A program made the position numbers. This document shows, piece by piece, positions 15,001-18,000 of a DNA stretch of 49,622 nt. Each line of letters starts with the position of its first letter. Position 1 is the first letter of the stretch. Source of the stretch: Phycisphaerales bacterium (GTDB taxonomy: Bacteria > Planctomycetota > Phycisphaerae > Phycisphaerales > SM1A02); contig JBIKXP010000001.1 of the NCBI GenBank assembly GCA_044355685.1, positions 1-49,622 on the forward strand. The letters are read 5' to 3'.

Positions 15001-18000
15001 GAGATCACCGGCGCCGTGCAGTCGTCGGGTTCGCTGAGCTCGACCTCGGTCGGCGCCTCGACCTTCCGTGGCGCGGTGACCGCGGGCGACGACCTCACCA
15101 TCGCTGCGAGCAGCATCGGTCTCTTCGGCAACCTCACCGGTGGTGCCGACGTCGGCGACACGATCACCCTCACCGGTCCGGTCGTGCTCAACGCGGCTAA
15201 CTCGACCTGGAGCGCCGACGGCATCCGTGTGAACGGCACCATCGATGGCGCCACCGCCGGCGCGCAGACGCTTGCGCTTTCGGCGCTCGACCGCTCGATC
15301 CTGAGCGGCGGAATCGGCAACTCGGTCCGGCTCGGCGAGTTCCGCATCGTGAACGGCTTCACCCAGCTGGGAACGGTCGCAGGCGGCCTGTTCGTGGTCG
15401 ACGCCGACCGCTTCGTGCTCGAGCCGGCCTCGCGCCCGGCGGGCGTGGGCGTCGATCTCGCAAGCCCCGGAAACCTGGTGTTCAACGCCGGCGAGTTCAC
15501 GATGGCGCAGGGCACCAAGGCGACTGTCATCGGCGACTTCACCATCAACTCGGGCGCCGGCACCGTCCGCCTCAGCGATGTGAACACCATCGGCGTGTTC
15601 GAGGTGAACGCAGGGTCCATCCGGCTGGTGGCCCGCAATGGCGCCGGTGCACTGACCTCGATCGGAACGATAAGCGACACCGGCCTCGACTTCGTCTCGC
15701 TCGGAGGATTCCGGTTCTCCGTCGTGCCGGTCCTGGACGGCGTTGGCGCAGTTCGCTTCGCGTCGCCGAACGCGACCGGCGACCTGAACGGCACCCTCAC
15801 CAGCTTCGTCATGCTCAACCTCAACGACTCCGACCTCGGCCTCCTCGGCGAAGCCGGCGGCGTGGTCGCGGCCGACTTCGCGAACATGGCAACCTTCTTC
15901 GACCTGATCGCGGACGGAGCCAGCAACGCCAGCAGCGCGACGACGCTCGCTGCGCTTGCACCGGCCGATACCGAAGGCTCGACCGAACCGGGCGGCGTGG
16001 CGCTCTCCGCATCGGAGCGTCGTCGCCTCGAGGCGTTGCTTGGCGGCAGCATCGAGATCCGTCTGCCTGAAGTCGCCGAGATCCTCGAGATCGGCCGCGG
16101 CTCGGTCGCGTTCCGCGACCACGGCCGCAACGAAGTCGCGGCGCTCGCGGCCGGGTCCGACGTCGAGTCGGTCGCGGCGCGTGGCGGCGATTGGCGGCGC
16201 CCGCTGCCTGCGGTCGTTCAGCGCTTCGCAGGCGCGCGCGTGCGCGAACTGCTTGCGACGTCGGACGCGCTCAGCTCGATGCCGCGCGCTGCGCTCTCCT
16301 CGGCCGCCGGGGCGATCGCCGACGCCTATACGTCGCGCGCCTCGCTCGCATCGGTCGTCGAGAAGGCACGTGAGTCCGGCAACGCCGCCGAACTCGATGC
16401 CATGCGCGCAATCGGCCGCTGGGTCACGCTCGGCGAAGAGCTCGGCCTGACCGACGCCGAGCGGCGCCGTGCGGGCGATGCGCAGTCGATGTGGCCGCAG
16501 AGCCTCGTCACGCTGAACAGCGATCTCGAGTCGTTCAGCGTGCCTGCATCCGCATTCGACGCGGAGTTCTGGATGGCGCTCGAGCGTCCGATCGCTTCGA
16601 AGTGATGGAGTCGTTCGACGCACCCGCCGATCCGAGCAGGGTCTGGCGGGTGCGTCGAGTTCATGGACATGGTGGCAGTGGATGGCAGGCAACATGGCGC
16701 CTGCGTCGGGAGACCGGTGGGCATGGCCGACGACCGCGACTCGATGGCGTCAAGTCTTCTCGAGTCGCTCGGCGAGGACGAGTTGCTGCGCATTCTGTCG
16801 GAAGGTCTTGCGTCGCAGGCTTCCGACCCCGGTGGATCGGCATCTGACCGCGACGATCCCGCGGTAGCGCAGCGCCTGCTGGTCGGTGGAGTCGTGCGCG
16901 TGATCCTCGAGCGCTCCTTCCCCGCGCTCGCGGGCGGCGCGGACCTCGACGCCATCGAAGCCGACGTGACCGACGCCTTGATCGCGCATGAGCAGTCGCT
17001 CCGGCGGATCGAGCGTCTCGCCGCCTCGCTCCACCAGCGCTTCGACCATCGCGGGGGGCGCGGTTGAGCGCGCCGTCCGGTCGCCGTTTCTCGGCCGGTC
17101 GGCCAGACGACGCGCTCGAGATCGAGCGCGAGGTGCCTCCTCCGACCTCATCGCCGCGGCCGCAATCTTCGACTGCGTCTGACTCATCCTCGTCCTCGTC
17201 CTCGTCTTCCTCCGTGTCTGGCCATGCCGCAGGCCTTCTTGCCGAACTGGCGCTCGCCTCCGCGGCAAGCGACCAGCAACTCGGCTCGCTGCTCGGACTG
17301 GTGCACGGCATCGCGCGCGAGGTGCATCGGCGCATGAGCGGGCGGATCGAACTCGACGAGCTGATCTCAGAAGGCTATCTCGCGCTGGTGCAGTGCCGCG
17401 AGCGCTACGACGCTTCGCAGGGCGCGTCGCTCGCCACCTTCGCCTACCGTCGCATCGAGGGCGCGATGCTCGACCATGCGCGCAAGAAGCGCTGGTTCGA
17501 CGAGTCGCGCTACGCCGTCGGCGGCTACCTCTCGTCGATGCGCGAGGTGCTCGACGCCTCGATCGATGACTCGGGTTGGGAGGGTGCGTCGCGCGTCGGC
17601 GCCGACGCAAGATGGGCAGTGCAGGCCGTCGGCCGCACGGCCGTGGTCTCCCTCGCGCGTCGTGCCTTCGGCGACTCCGCTCCCGAGGGCGCCGCCGAGC
17701 GGGGCGAGTTGCTGCGCCGCATGCGCGACTGCCTCGAGATGCTTCCCGAGCAGGACCGGCATGTCCTCCGCAGGCTGTGGATCGAGGGATGGTCGCTCTC
17801 CGACCTCGGAGGCGAGCTCGGCGTCAGCAAGGAGTATGCTCGGCGGCTGAACGTGCGTGCGCTTGACCGCATGCGGCGGCTGATGGGCGCTGGTGCGACG
17901 GCGAAGGAAGGCGAAGAAGACGGCGGACAGTCCGCCGAGAAGGAGCGCTAGGGTGGCGGTACTCGAACACGCAACGGAGATCCTGGAGGCGATCCGCTCC

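Follow-up and report, generated by a model that had tools for sequence, protein, structure and literature searches.

Why a sigma factor gene is located within a type VI secretion system (T6SS) locus, and what it might control there, is the question raised by the DNA of a Phycisphaerales (Planctomycetota) bacterium analyzed here. The window, meaning the whole analyzed stretch, comprises 49.6 kb (49,622 nucleotides (nt) of contig JBIKXP010000001.1) with a GC content of 67.8%. The sigma gene and a small open reading frame (ORF) directly upstream of it form a module inside a T6SS locus that was called complete. To our knowledge, the regulation of T6SS is understood almost entirely from Proteobacteria. 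There, control is exerted by the global sigma factors RpoN, RpoS and RpoE, by enhancer-binding proteins, two-component systems and a threonine-phosphorylation pathway.

The reading favored here, with moderate confidence, is that a dedicated alternative sigma factor and its cognate regulatory partner form an ancestral module of a T6SS lineage with a duplicated tssC gene. The sigma gene is very probably functional and tied to the T6SS, and it probably controls T6SS transcription. Three parts of this reading are inferred by us, namely the binding between the two proteins, the direction of the regulation and the promoters targeted.

The sigma factor and its coupled partner

The main ORFs of the window were scanned with Pfam and NCBIfam. 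The sigma ORF (17064-17951, forward strand) starts with TTG and encodes 295 amino acids (aa), which belong to the sigma-70 superfamily with 82.2 bits for TIGR02937 (cutoff 42.9). Region 2, responsible for core binding and −10 recognition, was found at 17289-17495 (+; residues 76-144; PF04542, 53.9 bits at a cutoff of 24, E = 1.6e-14), and its motif TFAYRRIEGAMLD..RK.RW could be aligned to TYAGIRIRGAMLDEVRKGDW of FliA. Region 4, the helix-turn-helix for −35 recognition, is located at 17730-17876 (+; residues 223-271; PF04545, 42.0 bits at a cutoff of 24.1, E = 6.8e-11), and its recognition helix GVSKEYARRLN consists of invariant columns of the family. For the middle segment at the position of region 3 (17502-17684, +; residues 147-207), no match to PF04539 was obtained with Pfam. 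The hhalign columns run unbroken against region 3 of FliA/WhiG at low similarity, and the clade-specific motif ARW...GR.AV is common to the distant T6SS-linked relatives. In the AlphaFold2 model, the sigma2 and sigma4 domains are confident (predicted local distance difference test (pLDDT) 82-92 in region 2) and the middle is helical with low confidence (pLDDT <50).

The best NCBIfam subfamily was FliA_WhiG (TIGR02479) with 78.5 bits, far below the cutoff of 189.6; the scores for NF005413 (72.4 vs. 201) and NF004935 (51.2 vs. 343) were also too low. A homolog with 50% identity (P0027) and the distant T6SS-linked relatives reached 69-118 bits, likewise under the cutoff, compared to 275.8 bits for the true member P0029. 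The nearest solved structures found with the family profile were the FliA chains 9wsf and 6pmi (E about 2e-17). Aligned with hhalign to true, region-3-bearing FliA/WhiG proteins, the family gave a probability of 99.9% (E = 6e-34) over 220 contiguous columns. The top Foldseek matches of the sigma model were SigD, WhiG and sigma-28, and WhiG ranks among the top matches in both structure and sequence. The sequence-only reading of this DNA had described a FliA-like, group-3-type sigma factor. The relationship is retained, since the nearest relatives are FliA and WhiG, but membership is not, given the scores below the subfamily cutoffs; region 3 is not recognized by Pfam.

An extracytoplasmic function (ECF, group 4) sigma factor would consist of two domains (sigma2-sigma4) in about 170-200 aa with a short linker and would match ECF-specific models. 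Here, the core comprises about 240 aa, of which about 65 aa separate region 2 from region 4. Both the best specific models and the best structures belong to group 3, and neither a kinase nor a membrane anti-sigma factor is adjacent. Judged by its sequence, the protein is a sigma-70-family factor of a divergent clade nearest to group-3 FliA/WhiG, and not a true FliA.

Alternatively, a sigma-like protein that has lost its role in transcription could join the small protein in supporting the structure or assembly of the T6SS, for instance in concert with TssA. The fixed place next to tssA, the divergent middle domain and the lack of a detected promoter would agree with this. However, conservation within the sigma family is highest in the motifs for core binding (regions 2.1-2.4) and in the helix-turn-helix of region 4.2, which form invariant columns. 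This is the pattern expected of a working sigma factor and makes a purely structural role very improbable.

The TTG start overlaps the TGA stop of the small ORF in the sequence TTGA at 17064-17067 (+). The proposed translational coupling to an acidic ORF of 114 aa was borne out, as the overlap is real, the ORF is conserved and its product has an isoelectric point (pI) of 4.6. The homologous overlap in the related locus L022 is ATGA. Of 12 related loci, 11 show an overlap of 1-11 nt between the stop codon of the small ORF and the start of the sigma gene, and only in L023 are the two separated, by a gap of 19 nt. The automatic gene calling had placed the sigma start at GTG 17214 (P0001, 245 aa), by which both the coupling and a serine run in the N-terminus are lost. 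The longer form from TTG 17064 is favored by the ATGA site of L022, by the overlaps in 11 of 12 loci and by the N-terminus of the relative P0003, which has the first eight residues and the AIELE block in common with the window sigma (M[ST][AV]PSGRR..A[LI]E[IL]E).

The N-terminal extension (17064-17225, +; residues 1-54) is disordered and of low complexity (pLDDT <50), and a third-position GC content of only 0.71 indicates a weaker coding signal. The run of ten serines described earlier is present at residues 41-50, with its coordinates corrected by 2 nt to 17184-17213. Only P0003 has matching ends and a shorter serine run, while the other relatives carry unrelated N-termini of 20-40 aa. From this comparison, the extension with its serine run is considered lineage-specific and not a feature of the family.

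The small ORF (16723-17067, +) encodes 114 aa with a pI of 4.61 (21 D+E vs. 12 K+R) and no cysteine. Its ATG at 16723 coincides with the N-termini of homologs (MADDRDSMAS...) and is preceded at a distance of 9 nt by the Shine-Dalgarno-like sequence GGGAGA (16708-16713, +). The block CGGAGACCGGTGG.ATGGC at this start is conserved in L003 and L008, and the third-position GC content of 0.81 matches the coding sequence of the genome. No transmembrane segment was predicted, and the AlphaFold2 model is all-helical with five helices (pLDDT 74). Neither Pfam nor NCBIfam gave a match at E up to 1, PADLOC returned nothing significant, no PDB sequence matched better than E 0.07 and no Foldseek-PDB match was obtained at or below E 0.001. 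Homologs with 55-92% identity are named 'hypothetical' and have no Pfam domain. A profile search of 5.8 billion proteins with the small-protein family revealed unannotated proteins only.

For the distant loci, a hidden Markov model (HMM) of the small ORFs of the close family was run against all six-frame ORFs and then iterated. Small ORFs were detected in L023 (E = 1.5e-15), L014 (1e-6), L012 (8e-5), L011 (1e-4), L020 (5e-4), L019 (8e-3) and L021 (0.02). In each case, the member of this family is located immediately ahead of a sigma gene of the clade. The core of the family is a C-terminal helix pair with the motif V...L..DP.[AS]R.RLERLW. The linking of these syntenic ORFs by the iterated HMM indicates that the small protein is as old as the sigma clade and was co-inherited with it. 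The overlapping ORF upstream of the sigma gene in L009 was found by hand; with an hhalign probability of 8% and an HMM E-value of 0.2 to the small-ORF family, its evidence is positional only.

At the other end of the sigma gene, the TAG stop (17949-17951) is followed by an in-frame GTG at 17953. The sigma gene adjoins tssA as described earlier, but the gap is 1 nt and not 2 nt. The Shine-Dalgarno sequence AAGGAG for tssA (17940-17945, +) lies inside the last sigma codons, which explains the conservation of the sigma C-terminus AEKER in 8 relatives. The tssA call itself is weak (TIGR03363, 39.6 bits vs. a cutoff of 160.85, E = 4.8e-10; ImpA_N weak). The gene at the same position carries ImpA_N in L012, L021 and L023.

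Conservation in related T6SS loci

A word-indexed search of 5.8 billion proteins revealed only 13 clusters of close sigma relatives (52-87% identity), after which the identity falls to about 30%. These are 13 clusters at 90% identity and 2 at 50%. When 1.84 billion representatives were searched exhaustively with a profile, two were found at E <1e-100, followed by a gap and a continuum from 1e-38. The GTDB genomes carrying the close family are metagenome-assembled genomes of Phycisphaerales; the related ones were obtained from Lake Mendota. L001, L003, L008 and L022, the loci of all close relatives whose contigs are of sufficient length for a judgment, have in common the order TpsA - small ORF - sigma - tssA-like - 530-aa protein - tssB - tssC. 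A metagenome scan with a narrow alignment resulted in only 4 short loci. A weak match to sigma region 2 in L018 (Ga0316204_10030870, 29% GC; 34% identity in 52 residues) probably stems from an unrelated sigma factor.

Beyond the identity gap, nine sigma relatives with about 30% identity were sampled. Linkage to T6SS genes was found in all six informative cases, namely L009, L012, L019, L021, L023 and the close family as the sixth. In L009, the sigma gene (P0028) is located between a large gene and a 361-aa gene followed by tssB, tssC, tssC2, tagJ, tssE and tssF. L012 (P0031) has the order small ORF - sigma - tssA - tssB - tssC, and in L019 (P0034) a TssM-like gene precedes the small ORF and the sigma gene. 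The 5.68-Mb contig of L021 (P0038, 48.8% GC) carries tssK-L-M-small-sigma-tssA-B-C-C2-E-F-G, and the same order was found in L023 (P0062, 53% GC). The contigs of P0030, P0033 and P0036 are too short for context, each with a small ORF overlapping the sigma start. Across the loci, in genomes of 49-67% GC, the module is usually located directly upstream of tssA-tssB-tssC. When 149 representatives at 50% identity were compared by means of rough profiles, 127 were nearer to the distant T6SS-linked sigma factors than to true FliA/WhiG, so the clade is probably large. This distribution suggests that the sigma factor and its small partner behave like core genes of the T6SS lineage with duplicated tssC, in Phycisphaerales as well as in unrelated genomes of lower GC content.

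The synteny bears on whether the protein could be a FliA/WhiG sigma factor of the usual flagellar or developmental kind that was rearranged into the T6SS locus and controls distant motility or development genes. Its best subfamily, PDB and Foldseek matches (FliA, WhiG and SigD) would fit such an origin, as would the JGI name of one relative, 'sigma factor for flagellar operon FliA'. However, the scores lie far below the FliA/WhiG cutoffs (78.5 vs. 189.6 and 72.4 vs. 201), region 3 is not recognized by Pfam, and no flagellar, chemotaxis or developmental genes were found in the 49.6-kb window or in the related loci. Relatives lie beside T6SS genes, and never beside flagellar genes, on every contig long enough to judge, so the placement is not a one-off rearrangement. 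In addition, the sigma-28 consensus TAAA-N15-GCCGATAA had no match in the window, also with spacers of N14-16, a result which concerns the presence of the consensus and not the binding specificity of the protein; by their coordinates, the hits to GCCGATAA with one mismatch lie outside the mapped upstream regions. The flagellar origin appears largely refuted by synteny and is regarded as highly improbable.

The T6SS locus itself was identified with Pfam by DotU, IcmF_N, VipA, two VipB, gp25, TssF, TssG and ClpV-type AAA domains, together with two Hcp, VgrG, PAAR-like and DUF2169 domains. The window begins inside tssL (DotU), which is cut at the left edge, and tssJ and tssK are not within the window. 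The gene for TssM is located at 1480-6015, followed by an ORF without annotation at about 6080-7096. Downstream of the module lie the weak tssA-like gene (17953-19086, +), the gene of the 530-aa protein (19139-20731, +), tssB (21001-21489, +), two tssC genes (21558-23084 and about 23214-24803, +; each full-length with VipB and VipB_2 domains) and tssE, tssF, tssG and clpV up to 32073. On the reverse strand, hcp, a PAAR-like gene, DUF2169, vgrG and a second hcp are found between 33934 and 44131. The claim that neither flagellar or chemotaxis genes nor the usual T6SS regulators are visible nearby held up: the Pfam scans of the main ORFs of the window gave no further regulator domain, be it of the sigma-54 activator, FHA, Ser/Thr kinase or phosphatase type, and no flagellar or chemotaxis domain. 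The sole Sigma54_activat match is weak (E = 1.6e-4) and lies inside the ClpV AAA module. About 7 ORFs of the window have no Pfam match.

The tandem tssC duplication was also observed in L008, L009, L021 and L023 and thus marks the T6SS lineage carrying the sigma module. The genes tpsB (ShlB; 7498-10410, +; about 970 aa) and tpsA (10513-16605, +; 2030 aa with long Ala/Gly/Ser/Thr-rich repeats) form a two-partner secretion pair, which is inserted between tssM and the sigma module; in L021 and L019, tssM abuts the small ORF. The 530-aa protein shows weak matches to VipA/TssB (residues 24-104) and to the N-terminal domain of VipB/TssC (154-312). Its gene is located between tssA and the normal tssB, and it has the appearance of a sheath paralog, either fused or degenerate. 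It is kept in the close family (551 aa in L001, 557 aa in L003, 527 aa in L008 and 532 aa in L022) and is missing from L009, L012, L021 and L023.

Three further ORFs were noted. The slot between tssC2 and tssE holds a 213-aa ORF (24886-25527, +) without a Pfam match, which may be a divergent TagJ; ImpE/TagJ was found in this slot in L008 and L009. An ORF divergent from hcp (34513-35130, +; about 173-206 aa) encodes tandem PKLEV-like peptide repeats with the DNA units AGCTTCGGCACCTCG and has no Pfam match. Between DUF2169 and the PAAR-like gene, an ORF on the reverse strand (37462-38805) shows a weak match to the N-terminal domain of beta-ketoacyl synthases (E = 8e-7) and may represent an effector or adaptor domain.

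Transcription signals and proposed regulation

Directly downstream of the tpsA stop, a GC-rich stem-loop was found at 16615-16658 (+). It is terminator-like without a U-tract and separates tpsA from the small ORF. The RNA fold of 16600-16670 has an energy of −42.1 kcal/mol (z = −5.66), and none of 200 shuffled sequences folds as well. A hairpin is located at the same position in L001, L005, L008 and L022 with a partly different sequence, and compensatory changes occur in 5 of 14 pairs. A sigma-70-type promoter-like site (TTGACA-N17-TAGTAAT) could be identified at 7174-7203 (+), about 300 nt upstream of the tpsB ATG at 7498, from which a long 5′ leader would result. The sequence TTGAAA-N17-TATAAC is found ahead of the small ORF in L021, which is richer in AT, and suggests that the housekeeping sigma factor reads the module itself. 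A scan of 16300-21100 for sigma-70-type promoters and terminators resulted in no promoter, and the sole terminator-like site is on the wrong strand.

These signals are relevant for the proposal that the sigma factor is real but mainly serves tpsB and tpsA (7498-16605) or other cargo instead of the T6SS core. A TpsA gene is always located directly upstream in the close family, and a large upstream gene is also present in L009 and L023. However, L021 and L019 (tssM) and L012 (a PEP-CTERM protein) have no TpsA gene at this position, and the constant neighbor is the downstream tssA-tssB. The good sigma-70-type promoter of tpsB and the strong hairpin between tpsA and the module likewise speak against cargo as the main target, which is considered unlikely.

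Upstream of tssB, a conserved element TTCCGTTATCATCG (also written TTCCGYTATCATCG) was found at 20940-20953 (+), about 50 nt before the ATG at 21001. It is identical or nearly identical in L003 and L008 at an equal distance from tssB. This is the only conserved non-coding element near the T6SS genes and the only candidate for a promoter −10 region. The shared promoter that the sequence-only reading had proposed to search for was not recovered, as none common to the operons or to the loci was found.

Some repeats were observed in the same regions. Just after the gene of the 530-aa protein, three tandem copies of about 18 nt (GACGCAGGGGCTTGCGGC) with CGCA.G/C.TGCG inverted repeats are located at 20783-20830 (+). 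The sequence TTGCGG or CCGCAA-TTGCGG recurs upstream of tssA or tssB in L003, L008, L009 and L012; this recurrence is not significant. The translation-initiation regions of tpsB (7486-7505, +) and tssB (20989-21008, +) are nearly identical (GGAGAT(A)TTGACATG).

In the proposed mechanism, the translational coupling would provide both proteins in a fixed proportion, and the module would be transcribed with tssA or just ahead of it. The partner would hold the sigma factor inactive by binding, in the fashion of an anti-sigma factor, or, less likely, would stabilize or activate it. Some cue would free the sigma factor, which would then steer RNA polymerase to the promoters of the T6SS structural operons, of the hcp-vgrG-effector operons or of both. 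Binding of the small protein to the sigma factor, for which the translational coupling and the strict joint presence of both genes at deep divergence speak indirectly, is moderately probable; its action as an inhibitor is a tentative proposal. In rsbW-sigB and spoIIAB-sigF, the anti-sigma gene is located directly upstream of, and coupled to, a group-3 sigma gene. The anti-sigma role is favored because of this similar gene order and because the partner is cytoplasmic, acidic and helical.

A number of results weigh against the favored reading. The functional case is guilt by association throughout, and the sampling of distant relatives comprises 9 contigs. The low model confidence of the sigma middle domain counts here as well. 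Known anti-sigma families were compared by sequence and fold, with HxxxCxxC required for the zinc-binding type and an HATPase domain for the kinase type. The small protein matched neither FlgM nor RsiG, nor the zinc-binding or the RsbW/SpoIIAB kinase type. Among the 186 collected proteins of the sigma clade, no fusion of sigma factor and small protein was detected with the small-ORF HMM. A Gibbs sampler (widths 8-16), applied to 9 upstream regions of tssA, tssB and tssK from 7 loci, did not score above the shuffled controls. Hexamers and heptamers shared by the upstream regions of 5 independent loci were not significant; ACTTGC and CAACTT recur in 4 of 5 loci, a level reached by 11 hexamers compared to 7.9 expected (maximum 16). 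The tssB element was rejected as a repeated promoter box, since TYCGYTATCAT with up to 2 mismatches gave 16 hits vs. 17.5 expected and the tssB copy alone is exact. Its TATCAT core could equally suit the housekeeping sigma factor.

Some of these points would suit a positive role of the small protein, which could act as a co-factor or chaperone of the sigma factor or could represent a separately encoded acidic module like region 1.1 that the sigma factor requires to be stable, to bind the core or to select promoters. Co-inheritance and stoichiometric coupling fit such a role equally well, and the lack of likeness to known anti-sigma factors agrees with it. The protein is acidic and helical like region 1.1 and the sigma-binding proteins of the Crl and Rsd type. 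However, it has no likeness to Crl, Rsd or region 1.1 either, the coupled upstream gene of the SigB/SigF type encodes an anti-sigma factor, and a version fused to the sigma factor, as noted above, was not found. A positive role is considered somewhat doubtful.

In a special form of the inhibitory model, the small protein would be a FlgM-like anti-sigma factor that is removed by the T6SS itself, freeing the sigma factor with each firing or assembly event. The 12-kDa partner would be exported through the Hcp tube, its size being within the range of Hcp-carried cargo, or it would be captured by TssA or the sheath upon assembly or firing. The release of sigma would then lead to the re-synthesis of Hcp, VgrG, sheath and effectors. 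This variant is rated as improbable. If true, the transcription of a contractile injection system would be subject to a checkpoint that is coupled to secretion and was derived from the sigma lineage of the flagellar checkpoint.

Comparison with known systems

Machines with their own sigma factor are known. FliA is the machine-specific sigma factor of flagella, and HrpL and BtrS are ECF sigma factors linked to type III secretion systems; BtrA, the antagonist of BtrS, is itself secreted. The window module differs from HrpL and BtrS by its T6SS context and by a sigma factor that is not of the ECF type. The operons of SigB and SigF resemble the module in gene order; unlike RsbW and SpoIIAB, the small protein is no HATPase kinase.

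For the T6SS, recent reviews name VasH/Sfa2, TagK and VirAG as cluster-encoded regulators and, as sigma factors, the global RpoN, RpoS and RpoE. The activity of VasH is tuned by the level of Hcp, a feedback from the machine. VasH and Sfa2 are, like the proposed module, cluster-encoded and dedicated to the T6SS core and auxiliary operons, but they are AAA+ activators of the global sigma-54 and not sigma factors, and none is present in the window. A locus-encoded alternative sigma factor had initially been regarded as an unusual T6SS regulator. This view has to be revised, since a precedent exists in Xanthomonas citri, where the cluster-encoded EcfK together with the Ser/Thr kinase PknS regulates the T6SS (Bayer-Santos et al. 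2018, as cited in PMC8103513 and PMC13584744). EcfK is a two-domain group-4 (ECF) sigma factor, which is activated by phosphorylation and acts via the AraC regulator TagK. It is an alternative sigma factor of the sigma-70 family that is genetically tied to a T6SS and controls it, and the only such precedent found. In contrast, the window sigma has three segments, is group-3-like and has a small non-kinase partner, and no kinase is located in the window. The literature searches revealed no report of a FliA/WhiG-like sigma factor with a small partner inside T6SS clusters, and no group-3 sigma factor is found among the T6SS-associated genes in the reviews of 2023 and 2026.

If the favored reading is true, a self-contained transcription switch is added to the accessory modules of the T6SS, and both genes become new annotation markers of this T6SS type. 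The compact sigma/partner pair, orthogonal to the host, could be used for the study or engineering of T6SS expression in phyla that are hard to grow. Furthermore, a flagellum-like anti-sigma checkpoint would become testable in contractile injection systems.

The closest systems are those of the FliA/WhiG sigma factors. RsiG, the partner of WhiG in Streptomyces (PDB 6pfv, 7lq4), is also small, all-helical and cytoplasmic. It binds c-di-GMP by the motif E(X)3S(X)2R(X)3Q(X)3D, which is not evident in the small ORF, and the context here is T6SS instead of sporulation. RsiG was not recovered by the Foldseek or PDB-sequence searches with the small ORF. In FliA/FlgM, the sigma factor belongs to the family that is nearest to the window sigma by sequence profile and fold. 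The window sigma differs by its scores below the FliA/WhiG cutoffs, a region 3 unrecognizable by Pfam and a locus without flagellar genes or the sigma-28 consensus. Its partner has no similarity to FlgM and is coupled directly upstream, unlike flgM and fliA in most genomes. Both systems nevertheless have in common a sigma factor assigned to one nanomachine, in the window presumptively the T6SS, and a helical partner in the cytoplasm that is small, with about 100 aa.

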